A stretch of DNA of 64,000 nt from Shigella phage PSD9: sequence record MZ561532. One strand, 5' to 3'. Under the pieces are notes generated by a model. It was not told the DNA's origin and did not search any database. It saw nothing but the letters and a program-made list of their open reading frames with translations. Position 1 is the stretch's first letter. Every line of letters begins with the position of its first letter. This document shows positions 760 through 62,794 of this stretch, piece after piece. A program made the position numbers and the translations under genes.

Positions 760-1707
760 TTAATAAAAATCAGCTACTGTAGCGGTTAGTTTAGACAAAC
801 CAGATTTAACGAAATAAGGATAGACTTTAGATTTCGAAGGTTTGTTATACGTATTATATCTTTCAGTAATTAAAGCAACAATATCATCTGGAATAAAGTC
901 CATATCAATTAAGATTTGGTTTTCACAGAAACGTTCATATTGTTCTTCAGTAAGAAGTGTTTTAATTATATCATGGTCGTAATAATTCAGAGCAATCGCT
1001 TCAAGTTCCTTGGCACGAGTGCTAGGAGTACGTTCGCCTTCAACCATCGTCAACCAGTAATCACCACGAACTTTAATACTCGCGACGTTATCCTTGCGGT
1101 CGCCTTTAACAACCTTAGTTACACAATCTAATAATGAATCGCCAGATTTTGTTTTGACGAATTTTTTCTGCATTGGAGACCATTGTTTTACCCCAGGGAA
1201 TTTATGGAGTTGAGTAAAGTCGCCATCCGAAGAACCAATCATAACTGGATGGCCTAAAGCCGTGAGGATTCGGGTTAAAACAGCAATATGGTCATCGGCC
1301 TCGACAGTATCGATATTCATAACAATATAAGGCATGTTTTGTTCCAGTTCATCAACAATAATATGCATTGCTGTGAATAAACCTTCCCAATCAAATAATG
1401 ATTCTTCACGAGCCTTAGCACGGTTTTTCTTATAATAAGGTGAATAGCGACGACGCCAATAACCTGATTTAGAGTTGTCAACACAAATAACCAGTTGGCT
1501 GTAACCTTGTTTTTTAAAGTCTTTAATATTTTTCTTAATTGAATTCAGCACGAGGTGCCGAAGCATTGCTGTAGTTACTTTAGGAAATCCAGCATTCTCA
1601 CCAAACTCTTGGAAAGCTGCAGCCATAATGATTTGGCTGAAATCTAGGAGTAAAAATCCATCTTTTTGTTGGTCTTCTTCGGGAAGTAAAAAATCTAAAT
1701 CGTTCAT
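760..1707 (-). CDS. rnh: RNase H / 5'-3' flap exonuclease
   Basis: Track ORF 760..1740; start moved to ATG 1707 (MNDLDFLL...) matching T4 RNase H N-terminus; conserved LLLDFSQI and ICVDNSKSGYWRR...YYKKNR motifs. Confidence 0.85.
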   Translation of the reverse strand: MNDLDFLLPEEDQQKDGFLLLDFSQIIMAAAFQEFGENAGFPKVTTAMLRHLVLNSIKKNIKDFKKQGYSQLVICVDNSKSGYWRRRYSPYYKKNRAKAREESLFDWEGLFTAMHIIVDELEQNMPYIVMNIDTVEADDHIAVLTRILTALGHPVMIGSSDGDFTQLHKFPGVKQWSPMQKKFVKTKSGDSLLDCVTKVVKGDRKDNVASIKVRGDYWLTMVEGERTPSTRAKELEAIALNYYDHDIIKTLLTEEQYERFCENQILIDMDFIPDDIVALITERYNTYNKPSKSKVYPYFVKSGLSKLTATVADFY

Positions 1708-1738
1708 ATGAACCTCTGTCCAATTAGTGTAGAGGTTC

Positions 1739-1767
1739 ATTATATCACGACCCTAGAAGAAGTAAAC
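1739..1767 (-). promoter_or_regulatory. Early promoter (T4-type, GTTTAC -35 / TATAAT -10) for rnh
   Basis: Minus strand reads GTTTAC-N17-TATAAT; plus gtaaac 1762..1767 and attata 1739..1744; upstream of rnh ATG at 1707. Confidence 0.55.
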
Positions 1768-1774
1768 ACTTTGC

Positions 1775-1782
1775 TATAAATA
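1775..1782 (+). promoter_or_regulatory. Late promoter TATAAATA for gene 34
   Basis: Exact TATAAATA 33 nt upstream of the gene 34 ATG (1815); T4 late promoter consensus recognised by gp55. Confidence 0.6.
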
Positions 1783-1814
1783 GTTCTATACCCTGAAAAC
1801 GAAAAGGAAATAAA

Positions 1815-4800: not shown

Positions 4801-5864
4801 CTCAAGGTGATACTTTAGCTCCGATTTTTGCCGAGATAAATTCGACCCCAGATGCCAAGTTCCATCCTATTGTTAAACAACGTTTAGGGCAAGGTACGTT
4901 CTCTTTAGGCACTGTAAATGATGGAACTCGTGATTTTAAAATACATTATCTTCCATCGCCGGGTTCTTTAGAATCTTTCTACTGGACCTTTAATACGACT
5001 GGTGACTTTGCTGTTAATAGTGGTTCCATTAGTATTTCTAAGAATGCTAATATCACAGGTATAACCACTTCTAACGGTGTTTCTACAACTACATTAAATG
5101 CTTCTGCTCTGTCTTCATTACAAAACGTAACTACTTCAGGTACTATCGTTTCCACCGGACAGGTATCGGCAAATAATGGTTTGGTTGCTCAAAAATACGT
5201 CCGCTCTGTTGGTGTTAAACCTACATTAGCATCGCAGGCCCCTACTGCAGAAACAGTTGGCTTCTGGTCTGTCGATATCAATGATTCGGCTACATTTAAC
5301 CTATTCCCAGGTTATTGGACGATGAAAACTAAACGTCAGGTTAATATTGATACGGTCCAAACTAAACCTGCCGGTGTTTCTGATGAGATATGGAATGCTT
5401 CTGGTTGGTTGACGGAAACGGGTGCATTTAGTTCTCCGGCTATTCGTTATCGTAACGAAGACGGTAGTTTTGGTGACGAAGTTCTCAGTACGACGGGTCA
5501 GAAATTACGTGGTACTTGGTTTGATTATTCTGTTCGTGATAAGGAAGTTAAATATCCTGGTACGTTAACTCAGTTTGGTAATACATTGGATTCATGTTAT
5601 CAGGATTGGGTGTGCTATCCTACAGGACTGAATGGTGGTACTATTCGTTATACACGTACCTGGCAGAAAAATAAAAACGCATGGACTACGTTCTCTATGG
5701 TCTATACGGCAGATAACCCTCCTTCTGCGGAAGAGGTTGGTGCATTGCCTGCTGATAACGCCACAATGGGTAACATTACAATCCTTGATTGGTTACGTAT
5801 TGGTAACGTTCGTATTATTCCTGACCCGGTCACTAAATCCGTTAAGTTTGAGTGGATTGAATAA
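1815..5864 (+). CDS. 34: Long tail fibre proximal subunit gp34
   Basis: 1349-aa ORF; extensive match to recalled T4 gp34 (N-terminus MADILKPAFRATSGLDAAGEKVINVA, repeated ...TETRRGIA(R/E)IAT... motifs, C-terminus GNVRIIPDPVTKSVKFEWIE). Confidence 0.95.
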   Translation: MADILKPAFRATSGLDAAGEKVINVAKADYNVLDDGVNVEFFIDENTIQAYDETRGYKKGFAVIHDQRIWVAQRDIDAPAGTFVPGYWTATRTDPKWITVASPTRQLASGEYIAVDSAASFTTFTLPPNPTDGDTIVIKDIGGRVGYNEIKLQSSSAPGGGNQKIVRFGNQFTETLITKPFSYNMIIFANRLWHFWEAANEERGIRVEPNTAQFQSQAGDNVLRRYTSGAVIKFTLPKYANQGDIIKTVDIDGLGSKFHLIVETFDASSSLGKPGQHSMEFRTSGDGFFVYNSTEKLWYVWDGDRQTRLRVIRDDVELLANESVIVFGPNNTTPQTINITLPTGVAQGDVVKIALNYLRKAQTVNIKAAVGDKIASSVQLLQFPKRSEYPPETEWVLNDVLTFNGNISYTPVIELSYIEDTTTGGKYWVVAQNVPTIERVDSKDDLTRARLGVIALASQTQANVDHENNPEKELAITPQTLANRVATESRRGIARIATTAQVNQDTTFAFQDDLIISPKKLNERTATETRRGVAEIATQVETNTGTDDTTIITPKKLQARQGSESLSGIVTYTSTVGTAPATARDTVGTNVYNKNVGNLVISPKALDQYKATQVQQGTVYLSNQSEVNAGQSASGFANSAVSPETLHARVALDTRTGLIEIATQQETDTGTDYTRAVTPKTLNDRKATEGLTGIARIATQVEFDAGTLDNVISTPLKIKTRFNDTARTSVSAASGLVESGTLWNHYTLDIREANETQRGTARLATQTEVNVGTDDKTIITPLKLHSKKSTESSEGIIRVATNTETTAGTSKVLAVSPSGLKYVVQTETTWEATALRRGFVKLTEGALTHSGNKVTGSGVKFNSGTGLYENDDTVLNAANYPKTGYAVSSYEMNKTLQNFLPINATAVNSEKLDGLDSLQFIRRDVDQTVNGSLTLTKQLNLAAPLVSSSTANITGNTILGSLEVTGNSTFKNDVSVSSGKSIKFVGPQSGAGTWNSQGDTLAPIFAEINSTPDAKFHPIVKQRLGQGTFSLGTVNDGTRDFKIHYLPSPGSLESFYWTFNTTGDFAVNSGSISISKNANITGITTSNGVSTTTLNASALSSLQNVTTSGTIVSTGQVSANNGLVAQKYVRSVGVKPTLASQAPTAETVGFWSVDINDSATFNLFPGYWTMKTKRQVNIDTVQTKPAGVSDEIWNASGWLTETGAFSSPAIRYRNEDGSFGDEVLSTTGQKLRGTWFDYSVRDKEVKYPGTLTQFGNTLDSCYQDWVCYPTGLNGGTIRYTRTWQKNKNAWTTFSMVYTADNPPSAEEVGALPADNATMGNITILDWLRIGNVRIIPDPVTKSVKFEWIE

Positions 5865-5872
5865 GAGGTATT

Positions 5873-6994
5873 ATGGAAAGATTTATGGCAGAATTTGGAC
5901 AAGGATATGTCCAGGTTCCTACATTATCTGAAAACAATGCTGTAAGGTATAAACTTAGTATAGCGGGTAGTTGTACTAAGTCTACCACAAAAGCATATGT
6001 TAAATTTCAAGATGGGAACTTCGGTTCCCAGAATTTTCAAAATGGATTAAACCTTATAGAAATTGATGTTAGTGCTGAACCTAAAATAGTGGCTAACAAA
6101 ACTTATAGTTTTACAAAAGATTTTGATGTTATTTCTGAAGCTTTTATAACGTATATAAATTCTATACCGGCCAATAGAATAGTTTGTTTAGTATCTTCTG
6201 GTAGATTAAATGCTTCACAAAAACTTATTGATTGGTTCCGTGCAGCAGGAAGTACCGCATTCCCGACTAAATGGTTAATAGACCGGTTTGAGCCATCTTA
6301 TTCTGCATTTTATGTTTCAGGAAGGAATGCCATAGTAATGGAACATGTGCTTTATAATGATGGGGTATTGGTCGAAGATGTTTCTACCCCATTAGAAGTG
6401 GTATTTGATGATATCAGCGACGTTGGTGGTACAGGATATCCTGTCAGAATTGTTGAAGACGAAAGCACTTATCTAAGCAATGATGGAGATGAAATTAAGC
6501 GATTTCCTACCGAATCTCCTACCACCCCATTAACAGATTATAATATGAAACCAGGTGAATTCTTTTACCTTAAGTTTCAATTAATGCGCGACCAAGCTTT
6601 AAAAGACGTAGGGACTTCTCAGATGTCTGTTAGATTTTTTAATGCCTCAGGTGCTTTAACTGGGACAGTTAATATGGACGTTCCTTCCAACGTTCCTGCT
6701 GGCGCATGGATGACATTTGAACGGGTAGTAATGGTTCCTGAAGGTACTACAGACTTTACTCTTTATGCCAGAAAAACAGCTTCGGCTGGCCAAGGCGGAG
6801 TTCGAAATGTTATGTTCGGTGAGATATCTGAATCAGAACCTCAGCCAAAACCTGCTGAATTTGGTGTTAACGGTATTCGTATGAACTTTGGTACGGAAAC
6901 TAAAAATATGGGTACTACCATAGCCCAGCTATATGATAAAACAGGCACTAAACCTGGTCAGGTTTGGGTCGCTGAATTTAGAGAAAAATATTAA
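5873..6994 (+). CDS. 35: Long tail fibre hinge connector gp35
   Basis: 373-aa ORF directly after gene 34 (T4 gp35 about 372 aa); synteny. Confidence 0.8.
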   Translation: MERFMAEFGQGYVQVPTLSENNAVRYKLSIAGSCTKSTTKAYVKFQDGNFGSQNFQNGLNLIEIDVSAEPKIVANKTYSFTKDFDVISEAFITYINSIPANRIVCLVSSGRLNASQKLIDWFRAAGSTAFPTKWLIDRFEPSYSAFYVSGRNAIVMEHVLYNDGVLVEDVSTPLEVVFDDISDVGGTGYPVRIVEDESTYLSNDGDEIKRFPTESPTTPLTDYNMKPGEFFYLKFQLMRDQALKDVGTSQMSVRFFNASGALTGTVNMDVPSNVPAGAWMTFERVVMVPEGTTDFTLYARKTASAGQGGVRNVMFGEISESEPQPKPAEFGVNGIRMNFGTETKNMGTTIAQLYDKTGTKPGQVWVAEFREKY

Positions 6995-7015
6995 GGAACC
7001 TTCGGGTTCCTTTTT
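6995..7015 (+). terminator. Intrinsic terminator, GGAACC-UUCG-GGUUCC hairpin plus U-tract
   Basis: ggaaccttcgggttcc followed by ttttt immediately after the gene 35 stop codon. Confidence 0.6.
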
Positions 7016-7028
7016 CGTTTTCTACGGC

Positions 7029-7036
7029 CATAAATA
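7029..7036 (+). promoter_or_regulatory. Late promoter-like element (cATAAATA) for gene 36
   Basis: Near-consensus TATAAATA 34 nt upstream of the gene 36 ATG, directly after the terminator. Confidence 0.4.
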
Positions 7037-7069
7037 TATAAAAGGCTATAACTCCCAAAGGAAACTCAA

Positions 7070-7717
7070 ATGGCAGATTTAAAATTAGGTTCTACAGCAG
7101 GAGGTTCAGTATTATGGCACCAAGGTAATTTTCCCTTAACGCCTGTATCAAATGACCTTCTTTACAAAACATATAAAGTTTATACCGAATATAATAAACC
7201 GCAAGCCACTGATAACGACTTTGTTTCAAAAGCAAATGGTGGTAATTATAAGAATAACGTGTATTTTGAAAAAGGGCTGACCTTTAATGATACTAATGGA
7301 TACGGTATTAAATTAGGAACAAGAACTGGTGGAGCACCGTTCACGGCTTCTTTCCGTATTAAAGGCGCTTTTGGATATGAAACGGAAGATGGTACTCCGT
7401 TCATGATATTCAACCCAAGTACAGTAGTAGGTGCTAAACGCCTCACAGTAATGGGTGATTCATTATTCAGACAAGTATATGACGAATCAGGTCGTGTATT
7501 CAGTCCAGGCAACACCCCTACTAAAGCTCAAGTAGGATTATCGTTAGTAGATAACGCAAAACAGGTCCAAATAAATAATACTAACATGCAAACAATGACC
7601 GGAGTACTTGCTGCTCCTAACTTTATTTCGCTGAATCCGGCCTCTGACGCAGGACACGTTCCTCGTTTTGACCAGATTGTTATTAAAGATTCTATTCAAG
7701 ATTTTGGTTATTATTAA
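7070..7717 (+). CDS. 36: Long tail fibre hinge protein gp36
   Basis: 215-aa ORF between gp35 and gp37 (T4 gp36 about 221 aa); synteny. Confidence 0.8.
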   Translation: MADLKLGSTAGGSVLWHQGNFPLTPVSNDLLYKTYKVYTEYNKPQATDNDFVSKANGGNYKNNVYFEKGLTFNDTNGYGIKLGTRTGGAPFTASFRIKGAFGYETEDGTPFMIFNPSTVVGAKRLTVMGDSLFRQVYDESGRVFSPGNTPTKAQVGLSLVDNAKQVQINNTNMQTMTGVLAAPNFISLNPASDAGHVPRFDQIVIKDSIQDFGYY

Positions 7718-7725
7718 GAGGCATT

Positions 7726-10700
7726 ATGGCTACTTTAAAGCAAATCCAATTTAAAAGAAGTAAAGTAGCCGGTGTACGTCCGACACCGGCCCAGTTGGCT
7801 GAAGGTGAACTGGCTATTAACTTAAAGGACCGATTACTTTTTACTAAAGACGATACTGGAGCGATTATCGACCTTGGCTTTGCTAAAGGTGGTAATATTG
7901 ACGGTAATGTTATTCATAACGGTAACTACAACCAGACTGGCGATTACACCCTAAATGGTACCTTTACCCAAACAGGTGATTTTAATTTAACCGGTATTGC
8001 TCGTGTAACTCGTGACATTATTGCCGCTGGCCAGATAATGACCGAAGGTGGCGAGCTTATTTCTAAGAGTGCATCGACGTCCCATTTGAGATTTTTTGAC
8101 GGCGCATCCCGCGAACGTGGCATTATCTTTTCGCCAAATAATGCTGGAGCGACCACTCAGGTAGTTAATATTCGCGTACAAGATTATGCGACAAGTGGCG
8201 AAAGCACTTATGCATTTTCAGGCAATGGACAATTTACTTCACCTGAAGTATCAGCATTGAAATCTATTTCGTCTCCACAAATTCTGACCGATAAAGTTAT
8301 TACAAACGGGAAGAAGACAGGCGATTATGATATCTATTCATTGGCAAATAATAATTCTAACACAGATAAAAATAATTTACGCGTTGTGCGTACTGATCCA
8401 GCGGCCGCAATGCTCCATGAAATTTGTGAAAATAACGGTATCAGTTGGTATTCCGGTTCAACCCCTACTGATTATATGATATCTTTTGCTTATTCCGGTG
8501 GTTTTCAAGCTGGACATTCGATTGCAGTAGGTATGGAATCAGGGCCTATGACCTATTCAACCTTAGGTAAAGGTTCTATTGTTTTAGGTGATAATGACAC
8601 TGGGCTAAAATGGCATCAGGATGGATATTATTTCAGCGTTAATAACGGCACAAGAACTTTCCTGTACGGCCCTGCAGAAACCACCAGTCTTAGAAAAATG
8701 GTTATGGGTTATTCTGTAAACGGTACCGATTTAACTACTCCTCCAACTGAAAACTATGCTTTGGCTACTGTTGTTACTTACCATGATAATAACGCATTTG
8801 GTGATGGTCAAACTCTTTTAGGTTATTACCAAGGTGGCAATTATCACCACTATTTCCGCGGTAAAGGTACTACAAACGTTAACACCGCTGGTGGTTTGTT
8901 AGTTACTCCTGGTAATATTGATGTTGTTGGTGGTTCTGTTAATATCGATGGTCGTAATAATGCTTCTACGCTGATGTTTAGAGGTAACACGACCGGAAGT
9001 AGTTCAGTTGATAATATGACTATCGCCGTTTGGGGTAATACCTTTACTAATGTTGATGGCGACCGTAAAAACGTAATGGAAATATCTGATGCCACTAGCT
9101 GGATTCAATATTATCAACGACTGTCTTCAGGTGCTATTCAAAGCCATTTAAATGGAACTTTGGGTGTAAACGAAAGTATAAATGTCGGCCAGGAAGTTAA
9201 CGTCTCCGGCACTATTGCTGGTAATGCGGTCAATGCTCTTAGAATTTGGAACGACGATTACGCCGCTATTTTCCGCCGTTCAGAAAACAGTCTTCATATT
9301 ATTCCTACCGCCTTTGGCGAAGGTAAAACTGGTGATATTGGTCCACTTCGCCCGTTTCGTATGGACCTTGATACAGGTAAAGTAAGTATTCCTAATATGG
9401 ATACTACTAATTTGACTATGAACCCAAATGGCTATATTAAATTTGCTGGTCATGGCTCAGGCGCTGGTGGTTATGATATTCAGTATGCACAAGCAGCTCC
9501 TGTTTTCCAGGAAATCGATGATGATGCTGTAAGTAAATATTATCCTATTGTTAAACAGAAGTTTTTAAACAGTAAAGCTGTTTGGTCTTTAGGTACTGAA
9601 ATTAATTCCGGGGATTTTGTTTTACACCATATGAAAGAAGATGGAACACAATCTCATCTCTCAAGATTTAATGCTGACGGTACAGTTAACTTCCCGGATA
9701 GCGTTAAAGTCGGTGGCGATAAAGCTACTATCGGCAAAGATGGTAACATCTGGTCTGATATCTGGAAAACGTTTACTTCTGCCGGTGACGTAACCAATCT
9801 TCTTGGTGCTGTCTATAGCCGGGTTTCTAAAGAAGGCGATACGTTGACAGGCCGCTTAACTCTTAAAACCAACTCAGACGCCGTTGTTATTGATTATCCA
9901 GCAGATGAAGCAGGTTATGTTAAGGGTAAAAAAGGTGGTGTTAATAACTGGTATGTTGGTAATGGCGGTGCTGATAATAACTTATCGTTTTATAGTTTCC
10001 AAACTAATTCAGGCGTTAATATTCATAATAGTGGAGAAATTGGTTTAGCTCCTCAAGGGTCGGATACTTTTTATTTTAATAGGGACCGACTTTATATAAA
10101 GGGTGCACAATGGACAGCTCATCAATCTGGTGCATGGGGTGACCAATGGGGTTTAGAAGCGCCTGTATTTGTGGATTTTGGCAATGTCAGTAATGACTGT
10201 TATTATCCAATTATCAAAGGAAGATCTGGTATTACTAACGAAGGATACATATCGGGTGTAGATTTTGGTATGCGACGCATTACTAATACCTGGGCACAAG
10301 GTATTATTCGTGTAGGTAACCAGGAAAATGGTCAAGACCCACAAGCTATATATGAATTCCACCATAATGGGGTTTTTTATGCTCCAAGCTTACTTAAGAG
10401 CGGCAGAGTATCGGCCGGTGGTGGTGACCCGGCATGGACTGGGCCATGTATTGTTATTGGTGATAATGATACTGGTTTAGTCCATGGCGGTGATGGTCGT
10501 ATTAACATGGTTGCCAATGGTGTGCATATTGCATCTTGGTCTGACTCTTACCATATCCATGAAGGTCTTTGGGATACCAATGGTGCTTTGTGGACTGAAC
10601 ACGGAAGAGCTATTATTTCTTTTGGCCATTTAGTCCAACAAAACGATAGCTATTCAACATTTGTTCGTGACGTTTATGTTCGTTCTGATATTCGTGTTAA

Positions 10701-11019
10701 AAAAGACCTTGTTAAATTTGAAAATGCTTCACAGACACTTTCAAAAATTAACGGTTACACTTATATGCAGAAACGTGGCCTGGATGAAGAAGGTAATCAG
10801 AAATGGGAACCTAATGCCGGTTTAATTGCTCAAGAAGTTCAAGCTATTTTACCGGAATTAGTTGAAGGTGACCCTGATGGTGAAGCTTTACTTCGTTTGA
10901 ACTATAACGGTGTAATTGGTTTAAATACGGCTGCAATCAATGAGCACACTGCAGAAATAGCAGAATTGAAATCAGAGATTGAAGAACTTAAAGCACTAAT
11001 TAAATCATTGTTAAAATAA
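7726..11019 (+). CDS. 37: Long tail fibre distal subunit gp37 with C-terminal intramolecular chaperone domain
   Basis: N-terminus [36 protein letters not shown] matches T4 gp37; C-terminal about 110 aa carries the S74-type auto-cleaving chaperone signature (SDIRVKK...[15 protein letters not shown]... then a coiled coil). Confidence 0.9.
10684..11016 (+). other. Intramolecular chaperone / auto-proteolytic domain (peptidase S74-like) at the gp37 C-terminus
   Basis: SDIRVKKDL...[17 protein letters not shown]...[18 protein letters not shown]; motif family of endosialidase and T5 pb1 C-terminal chaperones; consistent with reported proteolytic processing of T2 gp37. Confidence 0.6.
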
Positions 11020-11024
11020 TAAGA

Positions 11025-11038
11025 GGGGCTTCGGCCCC
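11025..11038 (+). other. GGGGC-UUCG-GCCCC stem-loop between genes 37 and 38 (no U-tract)
   Basis: Perfect 5-bp stem with UUCG tetraloop 5 nt after the gp37 stop and 12 nt before the gp38 ATG; followed by the SD ggagg rather than a U run. Confidence 0.45.
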
Positions 11039-11050
11039 TTGGAGGTTTAT

Positions 11051-11845
11051 ATGGCAGTAGTAGGACCATGGGTTGGAGGGTCTGCAGTAGCTAATACAGG
11101 ACAAAACTGGATGGGTGGCGCTGCCCAGCGATTGAGAATGGGTATTCCGTTTTGGATGAGTAATATGAACGGTCGGTCTGTTGAAGTAATTCATACTTTA
11201 GGTGGGGACCATAACTTTAATGGGCAATGGTTCCGCGACCGTTGCTTTGAAGCCGGTAGTGCGCCTATTGTGTTTAATCTTACAGGTACATTAGTATCTT
11301 ATACCCGTGATGTTCCATTGTTCTTTATGTATGGGGATACTCCAAACGAATATGTTCAATTGAATATTGGTGGTGGGGTTCATATATGGGGCCGAGGTGG
11401 TCAAGGTGGATGGACCCACTCGGGTGGCGATGGCAACGGCCAATGGGGTGGAACTTGTATTGTAAATGATATTGGCGGTCGTTTAAGAATTAATAATGGT
11501 GGGGTTATCTGTGGCGGTGGCGGTGGCGGTGGCGGCATTGCGTGGCGTCCTTACTCAGGTGCTAACTGGCAAGATATCGGTGGTGGTGGTGGACGTCCAT
11601 TTGGTCCTGATGGCGGTGGTAGATTCTCCGGTGGTGGTGCTTCTTATGAAAGCCCTGGCGGTGGATACGATTTGGATAGAGCCCACTCAGGACATGGCGG
11701 TGATGCTGGTGCCTCAGGCCAGAACGCATGGTCTTATGGTGGTAAAGTTCTTAAAGTTGGGGCTGGGGGCGGCGCAGGAGCTGCTGTTGCTGGAAGTTCT
11801 CCTACTTGGCATAATACAGGTGTTATCTACGGTTCCTGGCTATAG
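11051..11845 (+). CDS. 38: Tail fibre tip adhesin gp38 (T2-type, glycine-rich motifs)
   Basis: Track ORF starts at TTG 11039; ATG 11051 with SD ggagg gives [21 protein letters not shown]...[23 protein letters not shown]...[18 protein letters not shown]... then poly-Gly segments, matching the recalled T2-type gp38 adhesin architecture. Confidence 0.85.
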
Positions 11846-11856
11846 TGCATAAGCTC

Positions 11857-11864
11857 TATAAATA
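11857..11864 (+). promoter_or_regulatory. Late promoter TATAAATA for holin gene t
   Basis: Exact TATAAATA 19 nt upstream of ATG 11883, followed by SD aaaggag. Confidence 0.6.
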
Positions 11865-11882
11865 TCTTTAAAGGAGAAAAGT

Positions 11883-12536
11883 ATGGAACCAAAAGTAGGA
11901 TTTTCATTATCAGACCTACTTTTTGGACTTCTTGATAGAATTTTTAAAGATACTTCTTCCGGGAAAGTAGTTTTTTCCCGGGTCCTAGTCGTGATATTAT
12001 TGTTCTTTATGGCATTGGTTTGGTATAAAGGCGAGTATATTCTAAACTTTTATAAAGAGACTACTTATGCCTCTTATACTGAAATGATTAGACAAGACCA
12101 GGACAATAGATTTAAAATTGCGGCTATCGAGCAGCTCCGAATAGTGCATTCTTCTTCAGGCGCAGACTTCACAGCAATATATTCTTTTAGACCAACCAAC
12201 ATGAATTATTTTGTGGATATGGTGGCTTACGAGGGTAAATTACCGGAAACGGTAGACGCAAAAAACACGGGAGGGTTTCCAATTGACAAAACGTCAGTAG
12301 AATATATGGCGGGAGTTAACGGGAACTATTTTGAATCAAGTACCGAAACTGTATTCCTTCCTACAAAGAAGAAAACACAATTCACGTATATGTTTTCATG
12401 CCCGTTTTTTAATTTGGATAACGTCTACGCCGGCTCGATATCGTTGTACTGGTATGATATCAAACCGGATTTAGGATTTCCTAGACTTTCGTCTATGTGC
12501 GGTCAGGCTGGGAGGACATTAGGTCGAACACGTTAG
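11883..12536 (+). CDS. t: Holin T
   Basis: 217-aa ORF; strong match to recalled T4 holin T (SLSDLLFGLLDRIFKD, single N-terminal TMD, VDMVAYEGKLPETV, C-terminus CGQAGRTLGR). Confidence 0.9.
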   Translation: MEPKVGFSLSDLLFGLLDRIFKDTSSGKVVFSRVLVVILLFFMALVWYKGEYILNFYKETTYASYTEMIRQDQDNRFKIAAIEQLRIVHSSSGADFTAIYSFRPTNMNYFVDMVAYEGKLPETVDAKNTGGFPIDKTSVEYMAGVNGNYFESSTETVFLPTKKKTQFTYMFSCPFFNLDNVYAGSISLYWYDIKPDLGFPRLSSMCGQAGRTLGRTR

Positions 12537-18868: not shown

Positions 18869-19450
18869 TTATAAGGCGAGATACCAGCCGTTGTAATTGC
18901 TCTTACGGACTAGCTTTGTGATGGCTTCTCTGTCACCAGAGAACTTAGGAGTGAACAGGACATCGCCTGCCTCATTTACCGAAGTGTCGAATATAATTAT
19001 ACAATCTGCAACTTTATGATTCAAGAGCGGGCCCAGGTTAATCCCTGTTCCATAAGGGAAGTCACCGGAGTATCCTGTAGTGCAGGAAATCCACTTAGAA
19101 TCCGACTGATGGGTCTTGACCTCTACGCGTAGTCCACAGTACATAGGATGAGCTAAAACATCCCATGCATAGGTATAAGGGTCGTCATGGTCTTCCAGAC
19201 CACTGTTAACATATCCTTTCAACCAATCAGCAACCATGTACTCGGCATACGTTGCAATGACACACCGAGTCAATACTTCTTTCTTATCTTGGGACGGGTC
19301 TTGGCTTAAGGAATACAATACGGTATCCTTAATCTTGACCTTCATTTCGCCTGTTAAATCAGATGTCTTCAGGGTAAATGTCGGCATCGCTGCCAATCGG
19401 AGTAGTCCCGGGTTCGTCTTCACCATAAATGCCTCGAATATGAAGTTCAC
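18869..19450 (-). CDS. Hypothetical protein at the position of T4 denB (endonuclease IV); identity unverified, start uncertain
   Basis: 193-aa track ORF between ndd-side genes and rIIB; assignment by synteny only. Confidence 0.4.
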   Translation of the reverse strand: MNFIFEAFMVKTNPGLLRLAAMPTFTLKTSDLTGEMKVKIKDTVLYSLSQDPSQDKKEVLTRCVIATYAEYMVADWLKGYVNSGLEDHDDPYTYAWDVLAHPMYCGLRVEVKTHQSDSKWISCTTGYSGDFPYGTGINLGPLLNHKVADCIIIFDTSVNEAGDVLFTPKFSGDREAITKLVRKSNYNGWYLAL

Positions 19451-19658
19451 CGTAATAAATTCGGTCGTCGGGTTCTAAAGTATCAGAATCTGCTAAAGGA
19501 AATTCGCCTTCGACCACCTCATCGCATTCTAGAAAAGCGTAATGAACATCACCCGGGTGTTTAACGAGCTTAGCACAATAAACAGTACCTGCTTTATGGA
19601 ATCCACGCAAATTAGAAATCTTGATACCACGTTCACCGACATTCAGGTAATTAATCAT
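19359..19658 (-). CDS. Hypothetical protein (about 99 aa)
   Basis: Track ORF 19359..19667 starts at GTG; ATG 19658 directly follows the upstream gene stop. Confidence 0.45.
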   Translation of the reverse strand: MINYLNVGERGIKISNLRGFHKAGTVYCAKLVKHPGDVHYAFLECDEVVEGEFPLADSDTLEPDDRIYYGELHIRGIYGEDEPGTTPIGSDADIYPEDI

Positions 19659-19659
19659 T

Positions 19660-19857
19660 TTACTCACCGAAATAAGAAATACGAACCTCTAAACAATGAG
19701 CATAAGCGCCCATCGCATCCAGTTGTGCAATCAGTAACCCTTGTTGACGGATATCAAGAGTTTCAAAAACACCACCTTCAATAAAGGTTTCTAGTGCGTT
19801 AATTTTAAGAACCAACTGGTCGTATTCTTCAACTACACGTGCTTGGTAACCTAACAT
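19660..19857 (-). CDS. Hypothetical protein (65 aa)
   Basis: Track ORF; SD gagga then ATG immediately downstream of the stem-loop at 19870..19885. Confidence 0.5.
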   Translation of the reverse strand: MLGYQARVVEEYDQLVLKINALETFIEGGVFETLDIRQQGLLIAQLDAMGAYAHCLEVRISYFGE

Positions 19858-19869
19858 AATTCCTCATTA

Positions 19870-19885
19870 GGAGGCCGAAGCCTCC
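19870..19885 (-). other. GGAGGC-UUCG-GCCUCC stem-loop between rIIB and the downstream gene (no U-tract)
   Basis: Perfect 6-bp stem with UUCG loop; followed on the minus strand by an SD and start codon rather than a U run. Confidence 0.45.
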
Positions 19886-19894
19886 ATTATTGAT

Positions 19895-20863
19895 TTAGTA
19901 TTTGTATTCGTTTGCGAACTGTTCGGTGACGTCTTCTAGAACTTCATAATAACATACACGCATTTTAGCATCACCGTAATCGACCGGAATACTAACAACA
20001 TCACGTGGGTTAACTTTACATGAAACCACTTTACAGCTTGAGTTACCAAAATGACCGATATAACTACGAGAGCAAACGTGCAGACCACTTGAACAGGTTA
20101 CTTCATCATCGTCATTTACACGAGAACGAGGCATTTTAACCGGTTTGCCTGGTGAGTTATCAAACGTACCGGTACGGCAGTCGGTGTAATCGGAGTTAAC
20201 CACCTTCCACGTAATAAAGTGACCATCTTCAGTAATTTTGATGTCGTTTGCCACCAAGAAGTCGAACAAACGTTGTACAGCTTTTTCGCTTGGGTTTTCT
20301 AACAGGTTCTCAAGGAACGGCAGGTAGAATTCAAAGTCTTCACCATTTTCCATTGAAGTAATAATACGGTCAATCAATCCTGAACGCAATTCAATGCCTT
20401 GGTAAACCAGACGTCCACCTTCAATACGAACGTTACCTTTGACGAAGGCCTTAACGGCTTCTTTAATGGAAATCAGTTTAATCGCGTCATCGAAACGAGA
20501 TTCTTTAAGAGCCTGTACGATGGCATCAAAATGTTTGTTCTTATTAGTGGTGTTCCATACTGTACGACCTTCAGTGATGGATACGAATTTAGAACTCGCG
20601 TTCCAGATAATTTCAGGGCGAGAGCCGCCAATAGTAACTTCAACGGGAACTTCACGAGGCTCGTTAGGAACTGTTACTTTGATATTTCCGGTAATAACTA
20701 CCTGGGCCCGTCCAGCTCCTTTAGCATTTTTCAGGACTTTACGGATTGTATCAACTGATACACTGTACCAGTCAGCCAACTCATTCTGAGTATAATTACC
20801 AGAAATATATAACTTAACGATTTCAACTTGCTCAGCGGAGGTCAAACACTTAATATTGTACAT
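19895..20863 (-). CDS. rIIB: rIIB protein
   Basis: 322-aa ORF; N-terminus MYNIKCLTSAEQVEIVKLYISGNYTQNELADW and C-terminal region (KMPRSRVNDDDEVTCSSGLHVCSRSYIGHFG...YEVLEDVTEQF) match recalled T4 rIIB. Confidence 0.9.
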   Translation of the reverse strand: MYNIKCLTSAEQVEIVKLYISGNYTQNELADWYSVSVDTIRKVLKNAKGAGRAQVVITGNIKVTVPNEPREVPVEVTIGGSRPEIIWNASSKFVSITEGRTVWNTTNKNKHFDAIVQALKESRFDDAIKLISIKEAVKAFVKGNVRIEGGRLVYQGIELRSGLIDRIITSMENGEDFEFYLPFLENLLENPSEKAVQRLFDFLVANDIKITEDGHFITWKVVNSDYTDCRTGTFDNSPGKPVKMPRSRVNDDDEVTCSSGLHVCSRSYIGHFGNSSCKVVSCKVNPRDVVSIPVDYGDAKMRVCYYEVLEDVTEQFANEYKY

Positions 20864-35803: not shown

Positions 35804-35867
35804 TATATTTTTCCTTTTTCAATTCATTAATAAGTTAGATAATTATAACATTAAAATTTGTAAGCAA

Positions 35868-36236
35868 TTAGGAAGACCAGCCGGTAAATTTACGTTGTCC
35901 TGAATCCCAGTGAACACCTACGTCAGGAGAATACCTATAATTAAAATCACCGTAGGATTCCGAAATTTCTAAAATATATCTTACAAAATATTCACAAAGC
36001 TCATTAGACCATGAATCAGAATACACCACGAAGTGGAAAGATGATTGGTCCTCATCATCGACATCAATCCATACCCGTTTTAATTTACCTTCCGGCGAAT
36101 CATAAACACCTGAAATATATTCACCTTTAACCGAAAGGCTTCCTTCTTCAAAAGCAGTATTCAAAACAAGCCCTAATTCTCCAGGGCTAGATTCTTCTAC
36201 CCAATCATCATGGGTATTCAATAAAATCTTAATCAT
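35868..36236 (-). CDS. Hypothetical strongly acidic protein (122 aa)
   Basis: Track ORF; 23 D/E versus 9 K/R residues. Confidence 0.5.
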   Translation of the reverse strand: MIKILLNTHDDWVEESSPGELGLVLNTAFEEGSLSVKGEYISGVYDSPEGKLKRVWIDVDDEDQSSFHFVVYSDSWSNELCEYFVRYILEISESYGDFNYRYSPDVGVHWDSGQRKFTGWSS

Positions 36237-36245
36237 AATATTTCC

Positions 36246-36728
36246 TTAAAAATCAAATATGTCTAATAACGAATTAGTGGTATTAATATGAACTACTGGG
36301 GCTACATAATCATCCATCCATTCGGGATATCTGCGCCCTTCAGATCGGTCATTAGGGTCTAATGTATTTGCATATGCAAAGTTATATGAAATTATATCTC
36401 GATGTTCTTTAGTGTCACCGACAATATTTAAGATACGTTGGCATAAAAAATCATAGTTATCTTTCATATACTCAATACAATACATATCCTTTAAAGCTTG
36501 GGTTGGCGATACTCCTATTTCCAATTTCTTACGGATAACGGCTTCAACAAGATTACCATCTCCTGCTGAAGGTTCAAAGAATGTATTACCGGCCTTAAAG
36601 GATTCTTCACCACAAAGCTTTAAAAGAATTTTTGTACAGTACTCATTAGTGAATACCTCGTCAGTAGATTGTTGACGCTCACGAGATATTTCACCGTTTT
36701 TTCTTGAATTATCAATTGCTAATTTCAT
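36246..36728 (-). CDS. Hypothetical protein with SAM-binding-like motif (FFEPSAGDGNLV), about 160 aa
   Basis: Track ORF 36246..36731; ATG 36728 lies inside the 3' end of the upstream 499-aa ORF (17-nt overlap); motif resembles MTase motif I. Confidence 0.45.
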   Translation of the reverse strand: MKLAIDNSRKNGEISRERQQSTDEVFTNEYCTKILLKLCGEESFKAGNTFFEPSAGDGNLVEAVIRKKLEIGVSPTQALKDMYCIEYMKDNYDFLCQRILNIVGDTKEHRDIISYNFAYANTLDPNDRSEGRRYPEWMDDYVAPVVHINTTNSLLDIFDF

Positions 36729-38211
36729 CAAGACTTACCCCATTCACAACATTTTCTGCATACTGCCATTCTAAATCGGTAATGTTGAAGCGTTCTTGAA
36801 TCATTTCACGGGTCCACTTCTTGGTAAAATCAACTACAGGAGCGTTTTGAACCATTTTTTTACCGCCGGTACCACCGCCAAGTCCTAAAAAATATTGACA
36901 TGCTACTTTAATAGGGGCGTATGAATAAAATTCAATAGCATTTTCGGCTTCTTCAAAAGTATCAAAAGAGGCCCAAGCCTGTAAAGGTGGCTTTTCTTTT
37001 GTAATACGGGTTTTGGTGTTTGTCATAGCACTATAAAATAACTTGCCCATAATAATTTCAGAATTATCAGATGTAGTTGATGAAGGACCCAATTTCCTAA
37101 TAAAGTTCACATAGTATTCTTTTTCTACACCTTCATAATTATTAAGTTTTTCTTTAGTTCGGGTTTTATCTGCTATAGATTTTGCACTTTTATTATTCAA
37201 AATAATAGAAACAAAATCGTCATTATTATAATTATATTTAGCTTTTGTTCTTCCATTAATTAGGGTAAATCCTTGGGTTTCATTTTTAGAAAATTTTGAT
37301 ATCGCCAAAGCTGTTGTCGGTGAAGCAGAAAAGTACTTATTACCGCCATTGCAATCTATAATAGCATAATTTAGCCTTTTTTTAGCTTCAGGCCTGTGAG
37401 ATATAACTCCCATTGAATATAAAAAAGATGCTGGGGTGATAGATATTACATTATCTGCACATTCCAAGGCTTTATCTAAAAATTTCACATCACTCGTAAA
37501 TGGAGGATTCATGATAACTGTATTAAATTTCATTTTCTTAGGGGCCTTAATGAATTCAAATCCAGAGAAACATCCGAAAGTATCAAATACATATCGAGCT
37601 TTATCTGAATCAGTTGAAATGAATAAGATATCGGAAGTATCGTATCCGATAAGAGATAATAATGAAACAATTTCAAGGGATTCAATAACACAAATACGCT
37701 GAGACCAACCCATTGAATATGCAACCATTATATCACTCATTTCAATAAGCGTTTTTGCTGCTTCAAAAGTCATTACATTAGAGGTTTCCGCTGTTTGGGT
37801 GAATTTACCATCCATGGAGTGGATATAACGGTCATAATGGATTTTGGTATCAGGTTCAGATAAATCAAATTTAACAAAGCAGCGTTTTTCTTCAGAAAGA
37901 CCACGGACGCGGTTTGTTATAGAATCCCAATACTCATCAATGTAAATACCTTCAAGAGAAAAAGCTTCATGCTCATTAAGATTTGATTTAATAATTTCAA
38001 TCATGTCTGAAGGCTTAAGGCCTGATTCAAGAAGCTCTTGGATTTTAGCCAATTTTTCAGCATTACCTTGAGGGTCGGCCTTATTGAATTTTTTAGCTTC
38101 TTCAAAATGTTGCTCAGGCCGAGCACTTACACCTTTACCAAAGTAGAAAGGTTTTTTGTCTTGGTCTACTAAGCGATATACCTGATAAATTGTTTCCTGA
38201 TTGTAAGCCAT
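36712..38211 (-). CDS. GIY-YIG nuclease-like domain fused to an amino-methyltransferase-like domain (NPPF motif), 499 aa
   Basis: N-terminus IYQVYRLVDQDKKPFYFGKGVSARPEQHF resembles the GIY-YIG signature (UvrC/I-TevI type); central FNTVIMNPPF resembles MTase motif IV; occupies the 56-61 interval where T4 has dam. Confidence 0.55.
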   Translation of the reverse strand: MAYNQETIYQVYRLVDQDKKPFYFGKGVSARPEQHFEEAKKFNKADPQGNAEKLAKIQELLESGLKPSDMIEIIKSNLNEHEAFSLEGIYIDEYWDSITNRVRGLSEEKRCFVKFDLSEPDTKIHYDRYIHSMDGKFTQTAETSNVMTFEAAKTLIEMSDIMVAYSMGWSQRICVIESLEIVSLLSLIGYDTSDILFISTDSDKARYVFDTFGCFSGFEFIKAPKKMKFNTVIMNPPFTSDVKFLDKALECADNVISITPASFLYSMGVISHRPEAKKRLNYAIIDCNGGNKYFSASPTTALAISKFSKNETQGFTLINGRTKAKYNYNNDDFVSIILNNKSAKSIADKTRTKEKLNNYEGVEKEYYVNFIRKLGPSSTTSDNSEIIMGKLFYSAMTNTKTRITKEKPPLQAWASFDTFEEAENAIEFYSYAPIKVACQYFLGLGGGTGGKKMVQNAPVVDFTKKWTREMIQERFNITDLEWQYAENVVNGVSLDEISN

Positions 38212-38228
38212 TTTTGTATCTCCAGTAG

Positions 38229-38268
38229 TTGATATGTCTATAGTATCATATCTAGCAGGGATGTAAAC
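38229..38268 (-). promoter_or_regulatory. Early promoter with conserved box, upstream of the 499-aa ORF
   Basis: Minus strand GTTTAC-N17-TACTAT-AGACATATCAA. Confidence 0.5.
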
Positions 38269-38275
38269 TGATTTT

Positions 38276-38283
38276 TATAAATA
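38276..38283 (+). promoter_or_regulatory. Late promoter TATAAATA on the plus strand
   Basis: Exact TATAAATA 21 nt upstream of the plus-strand ATG 38305, followed by SD aggagga. Confidence 0.5.
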
Positions 38284-38304
38284 ATAATTTAACAGGAGGA
38301 TAAC

Positions 38305-38505
38305 ATGGGCAGTATTTTTTACCAAATCTGGAAATTGGCTGAAAAGAAAGACAAGAAAATGATGTTAGGTTTTCTTGCACTAGATGTGTTCCTTTGGAAT
38401 CTTCTGGTAGTCCCTGTAGCCGCCAGCCAAGGGATAATTTTACCAGCGGTTACAATGGAGCACGTGTTAAGCATAATTGGATTCTTTAGCGGAATTCCTG
38501 CCTAA
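38305..38505 (+). CDS. Small membrane protein (66 aa), late-promoter driven, opposite strand to neighbours
   Basis: ATG with strong SD aggagga; hydrophobic segments (LGFLALDVFLWNLLVVPVAA, LSIIGFFSGIPA); TATAAATA upstream. Confidence 0.5.
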   Translation: MGSIFYQIWKLAEKKDKKMMLGFLALDVFLWNLLVVPVAASQGIILPAVTMEHVLSIIGFFSGIPA

Positions 38506-39530
38506 ATCTTGGAATATTTTGAAAGTCTCATTTTTGCCATTAAACCTTGGGCTATATTAGCTTTCATATATGCCAGTACATCATTTATATCAGCTTTATC
38601 TTTCATAATCATATCATTTATATCTTTAGAAGGCCATGGAGCCTTGTCCCAGAATAGAACCCTTTCGCCAGCATCAACTAATCGTTGCATACGCTTAATT
38701 GTGTCAGGATGGCGGGGTTCATTGTCCATTACCCAGGCACGAGTTTCTTTACACGGAACCATAGCCAAGTCCAACGACCCGCCAGTAATTGCTATTGCAT
38801 TCGGTACGAATAATGAATCGATAGGACCTTCCATTACCCACACCAACTGACGTTCGTCGACAGTATCCATTCCATATATTTTTGTAGCTTGGTCATGAGC
38901 TTTTATTGTAATATATTTTTGTGGAGCATCTTTACGTAAGGCTCGACCCTGAAAACTTTCAATTTGTTTATTCTTATTGAAAATTGGAATAACCAAACGA
39001 GGCTCAGGCATTTCTTTAGAATAGGTCCCTGGATTGACAGAGTTCACCAATGCCGGCCATTCTTTAGTAAACCATAAGCGATTCCATTTGTTTTCAGGAA
39101 TGCAACGTAGTGTTACATATTTGATAATAGGATGGTCCTTTGGCATTCTATCCAGACGTTCACAGAAATTAAGCTTTTCGATGACAGGCATCTTGGCTTT
39201 AATCTTTTCTGATATCTCCACCTTAGGTGCAGCTTGTCTCCCGAACGATTGCTCTTTATGTTTCTCAAGAATATATTCTCGATATAAATCAGGCTCATAT
39301 TCGTATAGATACTTCTTAATTCCTGCTGAATAGTCACAGTTAAAACAGTGCAGCATTACGGAGCCGTCATTGGCCGGATAGGCCCAAAAACGAGCTTTGT
39401 TCTCATCTTTTAGGGAGTCGCCACATACACGACAACGACAGTTTAATTTAAAATCACTACCAGTTACTTGTCTGAATTTAGGTTGATAATTCAAGGCACG
39501 TACAGCAAATTCTCTATCGACATATGACAT
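38502..39530 (-). CDS. 61: DNA primase gp61
   Basis: 342-aa ORF, same length as T4 gp61; zinc-binding CRCRVCGD...CFNC motif; position next to gene 41. Confidence 0.85.
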   Translation of the reverse strand: MSYVDREFAVRALNYQPKFRQVTGSDFKLNCRCRVCGDSLKDENKARFWAYPANDGSVMLHCFNCDYSAGIKKYLYEYEPDLYREYILEKHKEQSFGRQAAPKVEISEKIKAKMPVIEKLNFCERLDRMPKDHPIIKYVTLRCIPENKWNRLWFTKEWPALVNSVNPGTYSKEMPEPRLVIPIFNKNKQIESFQGRALRKDAPQKYITIKAHDQATKIYGMDTVDERQLVWVMEGPIDSLFVPNAIAITGGSLDLAMVPCKETRAWVMDNEPRHPDTIKRMQRLVDAGERVLFWDKAPWPSKDINDMIMKDKADINDVLAYMKANIAQGLMAKMRLSKYSKI

Positions 39531-39746
39531 TATTTTTCCTTGGGCTCTAAATTAATAGAGCCATTATATCATTCGTTTTCGGATTTTTCTTTACGCTTTT
39601 TAGATGGGATTTGTTCAGGCCCTTTGTTGACGACCGCGCCTGAGGTAGTTCCGGAGGCAATATTAGATGGGTTACCACCTGCATCGCCTGCGACCATATC
39701 TTCGTTCATAACTTCTTTAAAAGATTTCATAGGCTCCTGGCCTTAT

Positions 39747-39938
39747 TTATATTACGAAAATAGCTTTATCACCATTCGCATCAGTGACTTCATAGGTATC
39801 TTCATGATACAGTGGGATAATCCAAGTCACACCATCACCGGCAATAATATGGATAGCTTCTTGGTCCTTTGATACGATTTCATACTCTTCGAATAATTCG
39901 AATACAGAAATCTTAGAGCCCGTACACATTGCACTCAT
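39747..39938 (-). CDS. Hypothetical protein (about 63 aa; start uncertain)
   Basis: Track ORF 39747..39956. Confidence 0.4.
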   Translation of the reverse strand: MSAMCTGSKISVFELFEEYEIVSKDQEAIHIIAGDGVTWIIPLYHEDTYEVTDANGDKAIFVI

Positions 39939-61903: not shown

Positions 61904-62104
61904 CTATTTTTGACTCATTGCACCTTTCCAGCCTTCGTACATAGATGCAGCTGAAATTAATAAAGCGCCTGAACAACTTGAATATTTGTGGTTCCAAAAC
62001 CAGTTCAGAAAAACTTCGTCATCAATACCTTGGGCTATCATATTTTCAAAGAACTGACGACGAGCTTCAGCAATTCGCTGTGATAATTTAGATTCAGGAT
62101 TCAT
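61904..62104 (-). CDS. Hypothetical protein (66 aa)
   Basis: Track ORF. Confidence 0.45.
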   Translation of the reverse strand: MNPESKLSQRIAEARRQFFENMIAQGIDDEVFLNWFWNHKYSSCSGALLISAASMYEGWKGAMSQK

Positions 62105-62236
62105 TTAAATTTTCCAGTTTCCGTGTTTATCAATGAATTTAATCCAGTCATTTACTGACCACGTGGTTGTATCGCCCTTTGGACTAACATTTAAAGTGTA
62201 TAGTCCTTGCTTAAAAAGCATTCGTTTGATATTCAT
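62105..62236 (-). CDS. Small hypothetical protein (about 43 aa)
   Basis: Track ORF 62105..62329; ATG 62236 preceded by SD GAGGAAAAT. Confidence 0.4.
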   Translation of the reverse strand: MNIKRMLFKQGLYTLNVSPKGDTTTWSVNDWIKFIDKHGNWKI

Positions 62237-62243
62237 ATTTTCC

Positions 62244-62537
62244 TCAGCTATAACGATAACATTCGTTTGATTTACGTTTTGCAACTCGATGAGAAGTATT
62301 GTAATCAGGTTCATCGTCATTGTAAACATCTTTTTTCAGCTTTCTCACTTCTTTACGAAGCTGGCGGTTCATTTCGTTCTTAACTTCAGAATCAACACCG
62401 CGCATACGTTTCCACTTGTCGGAACGGAAGATATTTTCTTCAACCAGTTCCTGACTTACTCCGTCCGGTGCTTTACGACGTCCGGAATAATAAAAATCTT
62501 TTACAGACAATTCTTTACGACGAATAGTTTTACCCAT
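62244..62537 (-). CDS. Hypothetical basic protein (97 aa)
   Basis: Track ORF; lysine/arginine-rich. Confidence 0.5.
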   Translation of the reverse strand: MGKTIRRKELSVKDFYYSGRRKAPDGVSQELVEENIFRSDKWKRMRGVDSEVKNEMNRQLRKEVRKLKKDVYNDDEPDYNTSHRVAKRKSNECYRYS

Positions 62538-62539
62538 AG

Positions 62540-62794
62540 TTACCTCAGCAGTTTGTATCCAATAAGATTTTTAATGTATTGGACATCTTTGACATCCAAA
62601 TCTAACTTAATATCTTTCAGACGGTCGCACAGGGTCAAAAAGGTTACATGTTTCCAATTCTTCACTGGGCAACAATAAGTCTTAGGACCATTTGCAATTT
62701 CAATATTCTTATCAGTGACGGTGAGAAAAATCAGGCGCTCATCATCCAGATTAAGGGTAACGATATTTTTCATTGAATGTAATTTCAGACTCAT
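62540..62794 (-). CDS. Hypothetical protein (84 aa)
   Basis: Track ORF. Confidence 0.5.
   Translation of the reverse strand: MSLKLHSMKNIVTLNLDDERLIFLTVTDKNIEIANGPKTYCCPVKNWKHVTFLTLCDRLKDIKLDLDVKDVQYIKNLIGYKLLR

Follow-up and report, generated by a model that had tools for sequence, protein, structure and literature searches.

The 64,000-nucleotide stretch of Shigella phage PSD9 analyzed here (sequence record MZ561532, one strand, hereafter the window) carries a plus-strand open reading frame (ORF) of 66 codons between the dam locus and the primase gene 61, and this ORF is a real, conserved gene. Judged from its sequence, the product is most likely a single-pass inner-membrane protein, and the gene is probably transcribed late, from a T4-type promoter of its own. 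Because the gene is probably late, is accessory, has been duplicated into paralogs in some genera and encodes a predicted membrane protein, we propose with moderate confidence that it is an accessory T-even unit with a late promoter, whose single-pass membrane protein would serve a dispensable late function in the envelope. The sequence feature itself is already known, since a protein 100% identical to that of the window is annotated in phage MX01 (ORF29, YP_009323926.1) and the family is catalogued as PHROG 2024. The surroundings are those of a JS98-like T-even phage (genus Dhakavirus), with 95-98% identity from window position 38275 rightwards.

The gene and its relatives

The window protein matches PHROG 2024 over its full length (E=4.8e-28, residues 1-64 against profile positions 1-64 of 65). 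Between genera the synonymous sites are saturated, the proportion of synonymous differences (pS) being 0.73-0.91 as against 0.14-0.33 for nonsynonymous differences (pN), and the ratio of nonsynonymous to synonymous substitution rates (dN/dS) relative to other genera is 0.05-0.11 where dS could be estimated. Variable alignment columns are distributed 37/21/61 over the three codon positions, and stop codons interrupt all other reading frames of the ORF stretch. As purifying selection on the amino acids is strong while synonymous sites are saturated, it is the protein that is the selected product. The opposite view, that a chance open frame arose in a regulatory spacer holding the gene 61 terminator and an early promoter, could draw on the lack of annotation in the T4 reference NC_000866, in JS98 and in the original 1984 T4 record, and on a weak minus-strand hairpin with a U-rich run in the 5' half of the ORF, where a terminator is predicted in one relative. 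This view is contradicted by the dN/dS values and the interrupted alternative frames, by the full-length PHROG match, by the length of 62-74 codons kept in nearly all intact homologues through three subtypes that are less than 30% identical, and by homologues residing in unrelated genomic contexts; in practice we regard it as refuted.

Across 5.8 billion proteins, a search with the family profile yielded 123 clusters at 90% identity. These clusters bear no functional names save three automatic labels ('Holin', 'DNA packaging ATPase' and 'dCTP pyrophosphatase'). When 1.84 billion representative proteins were searched exhaustively with HMMER, only 19 clusters at 50% identity came up, and scans with single proteins yielded only further close relatives. 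The three subtypes, designated A, B and C, share a common signature, and that of T4 (subtype B) occurs in 693 phage records. In Gaprivervirus and Mosigvirus, paralogs of subtypes A and B stand in tandem, in opposite order in the two genera.

A first-pass annotation of the window, made by a model from the sequence alone, had proposed this 66-residue plus-strand ORF and named its absence from close relatives as grounds for rejection; every Dhakavirus hit has the ORF, as do most genera of the Tevenvirinae, among them that of T4. The T4 ortholog (NC_000866 17738-17938), likewise of 66 codons and likewise overlapping the gene 61 stop, sits in the 309-bp gap between dam and 61, preceded by GATAAATA and AGGAGG. 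Whereas the reference records named above leave it unannotated, hundreds of newer records label it hypothetical. At least eight genera show this convergent overlap with gene 61, and the arrangement is seen in T4, MX01, VR25, Merlin, STP4-a, Biddle and metagenomic T4-like contigs. No convergent ORF was found in the non-Tevenvirinae T4-like phages RB43, KP15, Krischvirus ECD7, phiAS4, ZZ1 and Muldoon, nor in Tegunavirus phiR1-RT; in all seven a same-strand gene follows gene 61 within a few bases. As the non-Tevenvirinae T4-like genera lack the convergent ORF, the gene is accessory and lies outside the T4 core.

The family extends beyond T4-like genomes. In four uncultured phage contigs a tail fibre or tip gene is followed by a gene for a 94-98-residue protein, then by endonuclease VII and a PHROG 2024 member. 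The 94-98-residue protein has an N-terminal transmembrane helix and a coiled coil. Stops and starts overlap within this module, which ends a plus-strand late operon just ahead of a strand switch, and its end corresponds to the place that holin t occupies in the window, at the end of the tail-fibre genes. We sought a counterpart of the tail-fibre/endonuclease VII module among cultured phages and found none. Reading one of these loci (contig L012) as a lysis cassette was dropped, because the 179-residue protein encoded downstream in that contig, the one tested, is not a recognisable endolysin. A further distant member, P0127 (contig L015, 129-1383), is followed 16 nt downstream by a gene for a 352-residue protein with a RelA/SpoT domain on a short metagenomic contig.

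Predicted late promoter, leader and convergent transcription

Upstream of the gene stands TATAAATA, an exact match to the T4-type late promoter element, together with a strong Shine-Dalgarno sequence; both had been pointed out in the first-pass annotation and both are present as described, and the promoter motif keeps its position from genus to genus. With the element defined in the literature as positions -13 to -6 (PMC1524935), transcription would start some 6 nt past the motif, leaving a short leader. The number of exact TATAAATA sites in the window does not exceed chance (5 observed, 6.9 +/- 2.5 in shuffled sequences). All five nevertheless lie 13-32 nt upstream of a start codon on the same strand, and three of them head the canonical T4 late genes for gp34 (proximal tail fibre), holin t and soc. 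As the count is at chance level while every site precedes a start, it is the placement of the motif and not its number that is informative. The 7-mer ATAAATA occurs nine times over both strands of the window (128 kb of strand sequence), by our estimate far below expectation for its AT-rich base composition, and at least six of the nine occurrences are just upstream of start codons, namely the five exact TATAAATA sites and CATAAATA at 7029 before gp36. This scarcity suggests that stray late promoters are avoided genome-wide by selection.

The promoter motif is kept in all promoter-proximal family members in the T4-like contexts examined, where nATAAATA or ATTAAATA is found 12-22 nt before the ATG, and AGGAG is kept upstream of nearly all of them; the DNA further upstream is unrelated and unalignable between genera. 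Of the tandem paralogs, in VR25 and ESCO47, only the first copy has the motif. Outside T4-like contexts it is missing upstream of three of four homologues, the fourth having ATTAAATA about 32 nt upstream, beyond the range of 12-22 nt. The first base of the motif varies between phage groups, and T at -13 is described as poorly conserved or variable among T4-like phages (PMC1524935). Taken together, the sequence signals indicate that the ORF is probably transcribed late. A T4 differential RNA sequencing preprint gives 150 phage start sites, of which 22 are antisense. Full-text searches of a paper library on T4 late and antisense promoters, unannotated small ORFs and essentiality turned up no mention of the ORF, and the locus is not discussed in the HIDEN-SEQ preprint or in a preprint on a genome-wide transposon study.

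Homology to JS98-type genomes starts exactly at the TATAAATA motif, and the promoter therefore marks the border of a hypervariable locus between gene 56 and gene 61. The early-type promoter of the leftward gene lies back-to-back with it on the minus strand, its -35 hexamer separated from the late motif by 8 nt, just as first annotated. This early-promoter stretch is also present in MX01, whose alignment begins at window position 38209.

On the other side, a second exact TATAAATA upstream of gene 61.1 implies, if it acts as the motif predicts, late transcription of 61.1 and the primase gene head-on with the plus-strand late unit. We searched for an intrinsic terminator 3' of the ORF and found none, and the late transcript may read through into gene 61, towards the promoter at 39751-39744. 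It is conceivable that the function lies at the level of RNA, the late transcript silencing primase mRNA in antisense or colliding with late transcription from the 61.1 promoter, with the peptide secondary. The stop-to-stop overlap with gene 61 that is kept across genera, the lack of a detected intrinsic terminator and the TATAAATA that drives 61.1 and 61 towards the ORF would all fit. We nevertheless consider it very improbable, as selection acts strongly on the amino acids while synonymous sites are saturated, on both strands the locus folds about as stably as shuffled controls do (z = -0.78 and -0.29), an Rfam search of the locus gave no match, and distant homologues retain the protein without a primase neighbour; an untranslated antisense tail would moreover be prone to Rho termination.

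A predicted membrane protein and its possible roles

Taking a Kyte-Doolittle mean of 1.6 over 19 residues as the threshold for a transmembrane segment, residues 19-41 are the sole segment above it in every subtype (1.9-2.05 in the window protein, 1.85-1.87 in T4, 2.04 in Merlin, 1.65 in KP1079). AlphaFold2 models a helix over residues 17-41, with a predicted local distance difference test score (pLDDT) of 82-87 for this block, then a loop over residues 42-50 and a 12-residue helix over residues 51-62 that opens with a conserved acidic residue. Ahead of the membrane segment, residues 1-18 are basic and a helix is predicted for them. The initial description of two hydrophobic segments is thus partly right: the first is a robust predicted transmembrane helix, whereas the second is not consistently one, residues 43-62 being marginal in subtypes A and B (1.72 in the window protein, 1.86 in T4) and below the threshold in subtype C (at most about 1.2). 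The second stretch could re-enter the membrane in subtypes A and B; that of subtype C has too little length and too many prolines. The net charge, scored in four subtype representatives, is +1 to +5 at the N-terminus and 0 to -2 in the tail, a distribution that favours an N-in/C-out topology, with the tail of codons 42-66 probably periplasmic or interfacial. With one hydrophobic helix in every subtype, a basic N-terminus and an acidic tail, the proposal of a membrane protein is upheld as a prediction.

The window protein contains the family signature W-N-x4-P ... G-x3-P-x-V-x-[LM]-[ED]. In 36 diverse sequences W31, N32 and P37 are invariant, and 90% or more of the sequences keep G43, P47 and G63. 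Asn32 is a polar residue within the membrane helix, as is Asp27 in subtype A, and an asparagine in mid-membrane is a classic driver of helix association. The C-terminus, ending in SIIGFFSGIPA, has no charged residue past His53, and beyond residue 18 trypsin would release no useful peptide. A signal-anchor-release (SAR) type helix was considered and rejected, the hand-counted Gly/Ala/Ser/Thr content being inconsistent across subtypes.

Based on these features we propose the following scheme. A solitary plus-strand unit within the early region would be expressed from its own gp55-type late promoter, with a leader of 16 nt and a strong ribosome-binding site. Its product would keep the basic, amphipathic N-terminal helix in the cytoplasm, cross the inner membrane with a single helix and expose a tail of 25 residues, mildly acidic and hydrophobic, at the periplasmic face. 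The invariant Trp-Asn in mid-membrane, the Pro five residues on and the Gly/Pro loop with its acidic residue suggest that the protein acts by helix-helix association, either with another copy of itself or with another membrane protein, rather than by catalysis. The sequence comparisons show that the gene is real and conserved, that its synteny and promoter motif are kept, how its product is built in terms of hydrophobicity and that its distribution is accessory; when it is transcribed, how the protein lies in the membrane, whether it oligomerises or binds a partner and what it does in the cell are inferred.

Several points weigh against a late envelope function. The confidence of the AlphaFold2 model as a whole is moderate (pLDDT 73) and the topology is read from hydropathy and charge alone. 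The promoter motif opens with G or A, not T, in T4 and JS98, which makes its strength in these phages uncertain. Pfam, NCBIfam, PADLOC and PDB hold no characterised relative: Pfam and NCBIfam gave no match save a meaningless one to SspI at E=0.12, PADLOC none at E<=1 for four family members, and a profile search of PDB only noise (E>=0.1), while Foldseek against viral structures returned only family members. The gene has no physical link to endolysin, t, rI or rIII, and to our knowledge T4 lysis genetics is regarded as complete without it.

Small size, a hydrophobic helix and late expression signals are also what a holin or pinholin would have, that is, a small hole-forming protein that triggers or contributes to the permeabilisation leading to lysis. 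Two database records name homologues 'putative holin' or 'Holin', and the distant relatives lie at the end of a tail-fibre operon, where the window phage keeps t. These labels, however, are automatic and free of evidence, and several defining features of holins were looked for and are lacking: a single transmembrane helix is consistent, the C-terminus is hydrophobic and bears no charge whereas class I and II holins typically have a charged cytoplasmic tail, and a dual start of the Met-Lys-Met type is absent. No endolysin gene is adjacent in any T4-like or distant context examined, the nearest lysozyme genes being 1.5-3.5 kb off on the opposite strand. The protein has no match to a Pfam holin family and is unrelated by hhalign to the window's own holin T. 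T4 t mutants fail to lyse, so the gene cannot replace t, and related genera with a T-type lysis system have no such gene at this position. Direct holin activity is therefore unlikely, and we rate it as quite improbable.

The surroundings of the gene call to mind a 'moron-like' membrane protein that blocks competing phages or neutralises membrane-based abortive infection. The locus is hypervariable and accessory, the JS98-type homology breaks at the promoter and the cassette leftwards is unique; homologues of spackle and dmd are close neighbours on the other side of the ORF. The tandem paralogs of some genera, the distribution limited to one subfamily and one distant homologue that is the last phage gene before host genes on a prophage-like contig point the same way. 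As to exclusion, T4 already has it in place through Imm and Sp before late expression, and a protein from a late-only promoter would come after it. Selection is strongly and uniformly purifying and shows no trace of arms-race diversification, the family is dissimilar to Imm (hhalign probability 0.4% against the window's Imm) and to every PADLOC model, and most distant homologues lie in late structural operons rather than in positions expressed during lysogeny. We therefore hold a role in exclusion or counter-defence to be unlikely. A structural or assembly role is also unlikely, as related genera with the same virion do without the gene.

Within the dispensable late envelope function that we favour, modulation of lysis or of lysis inhibition is a tentative suggestion, somewhat more likely than late superinfection exclusion, and another membrane role takes a large share. 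The roles suggested in the first-pass annotation, in lysis timing, superinfection exclusion or envelope remodelling, are likewise speculative. A bolder version, which we put forward as speculation and think doubtful, is that of an overlooked T4 late gene whose product modulates the timing of holin T and antiholin RI or blocks superinfection late, its transcript perhaps acting as an antisense brake on primase.

Work on lysis control, superinfection exclusion and late transcription in phages takes T4 as its reference organism, and the 309-bp dam-61 'gap' of T4 holds a gene that is conserved, late-promoter motif included, across most Tevenvirinae genera. It appears that the gene escaped the T4 reference annotation and hence most T4 omics analyses; studies built on NC_000866 are blind to it, and the exact coordinates now allow existing T4 dRNA-seq, Ribo-seq and transposon data to be re-examined. 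An effect on lysis timing, lysis inhibition or exclusion, if true, would add a new component to systems deemed genetically complete, whereas with no phenotype the gene would be one more small hydrophobic T-even ORF among the many without an assigned role.

The locus in its setting and among known systems

The window opens with the late tail-fibre genes and holin t, and from about 12.5 kb to its end it is a minus-strand early block. The other plus-strand ORFs in this block (at 19542, 39540, 41137, 59455, 60127 and 62289) have no PHROG match, which agrees with the initial view of the ORF as the only convincing plus-strand gene there. Two stretches of the block, 19450-19895 and 61997-62791, hold no convincing ORF; their plus-strand ORFs of 80 and 129 residues have no PHROG match. 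The convergent primase is 100% identical to gp61 of IME08. The minus-strand hairpin within the 5' half of the ORF (about 38345-38375) is weak and AU-rich, is followed by the U-rich run, and may terminate gene 61 transcripts in a leaky manner; Yersinia phage fPS-65 has a predicted terminator in a comparable position.

The left neighbour had been taken for the dam-locus gene. The locus is indeed that of dam, but the gene there encodes a 499-residue GIY-YIG-domain protein and not dam. It belongs to a cassette of about 2.4 kb (window 35850-38275) with three minus-strand ORFs, between gene 56 and the late promoter, for which no megablast match was found among 50,697 phage records. The C-terminal half of the 499-residue protein matches the 'homing endonuclease' family phrog_314 (E=2e-50), and the cassette appears to be a new mobile insertion of nuclease and methyltransferase genes at the dam locus.

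Table 1. Coordinates and properties of the ORF, its signals, its neighbours and its relatives (window positions unless a contig is named)
Feature	Position	Strand	Details
Coding sequence, 66 residues, PHROG 2024 (function unassigned), subtype A	38305-38505	+	ATG 38305, TAA 38503-38505
T4-type late promoter element TATAAATA (-13 to -6)	38276-38283	+	exact match, 21 nt before ATG
Predicted 16-nt 5' leader	38289-38304	+	start placed at ~38289, 6 nt past the motif, from the published -13 to -6 definition
Shine-Dalgarno AGGAGGA	38294-38300	+	read directly, 4 nt before ATG
Predicted transmembrane helix, codons 19-41, with invariant W31-N32 and P37	38359-38427	+	hydropathy, AlphaFold2, alignments
Tail, codons 42-66: loop G43-x3-P47-x-V-x-[LM]-[ED] and predicted short hydrophobic helix 51-62	38428-38502	+	alignments, AlphaFold2
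Tail-to-tail overlap, ORF stop TAA and primase stop TAG (minus strand)	38502-38505		4 nt, read from sequence
Primase gene 61, convergent neighbour	38502-39530	-	phrog_47 DNA primase, E=1e-95
Gene 61.1	39569-39730	-	phrog_1823 match (61.1-like)
Second exact TATAAATA	39744-39751	-	13 nt before gene 61.1, facing the plus-strand late promoter
Early-type sigma-70/T4 promoter for the 499-residue gene leftwards	38240-38267	-	TTTACA 38267-38262, 16-nt spacer with TG, TACTAT ending 38240
Cassette ORF 1	within 35850-38275	-	122 residues, no family match
Cassette ORF 2	within 35850-38275	-	161 residues, phrog_21201 DNA methyltransferase, E=4e-64
Cassette ORF 3	within 35850-38275	-	499 residues, N-terminal LEM-3-like GIY-YIG (PF22945), NPPF motif
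Late tail-fibre genes and holin t	1815-12536	+	opening block of the window
T4 ortholog in contig numbering	L005 3239-3439		
Tandem paralog loci	VR25 (L006) 1295-1701; ESCO47 (L008) 1501-1894		
Metagenomic module loci	L012 3260-4210; L014 4279-5213; L041 4272-5159; L042 4263-5153		
Subtype A			this window, Marfa-like Klebsiella phages, Kanagawavirus
Subtype B			T4 and other Tequatrovirus
Subtype C			Moonvirus, Gelderlandvirus, Jiaodavirus
First base of late motif T			window, MX01, Marfa-like phages, ZX14
First base of late motif A			JS98-like phages
First base of late motif G			T4-like phages
First base of late motif C			VR25, ESCO47, KP1079, three metagenomic T4-like contigs

Set beside known systems, PHROG 2024 is the window protein's own family: its members MX01 ORF29, RB32ORF030w, T73t3_32 of a T4 clone and Merlin gp33 agree with it in length, strand, position on the gene 61 side and upstream signals, and we found no difference. 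The small holins and pinholins (lambda S, S21, T7 gp17.5) and the T4 holin T share with the ORF product small size, hydrophobicity, late expression (predicted for the ORF) and polar residues within the membrane helix. Unlike them, it has one consistent transmembrane helix and lacks the charged C-terminal tail, the dual start, the endolysin neighbour and any sequence relation, and the window phage already carries holin T. Imm and Sp of T4 are, like the ORF product, small T-even envelope proteins from the same early-region neighbourhood, but theirs are early minus-strand genes and the family is unlike the window's Imm.

The E protein of phiX174 is a single-gene lysis protein with an essential proline in its transmembrane segment. 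Small transmembrane inhibitors of host membrane enzymes, of the E type, share with the ORF product its short length and conserved residues in the transmembrane helix, including an invariant proline, which would suit action by helix-helix binding. The likeness is an analogy of mechanism only; we know of no T-even phage that depends on an E-type protein for lysis. The T4 late genes that depend on gp55, gp33 and gp45 through TATAAATA promoters have the motif, a short leader and a strong ribosome-binding site in common with the ORF. Compared with gp34, t and soc, the ORF forms a unit of one gene, set within the early region and on the strand opposite to that region's genes, its orthologs in T4 and JS98 have G or A at -13, and its dependence on gp55 is predicted from the motif.

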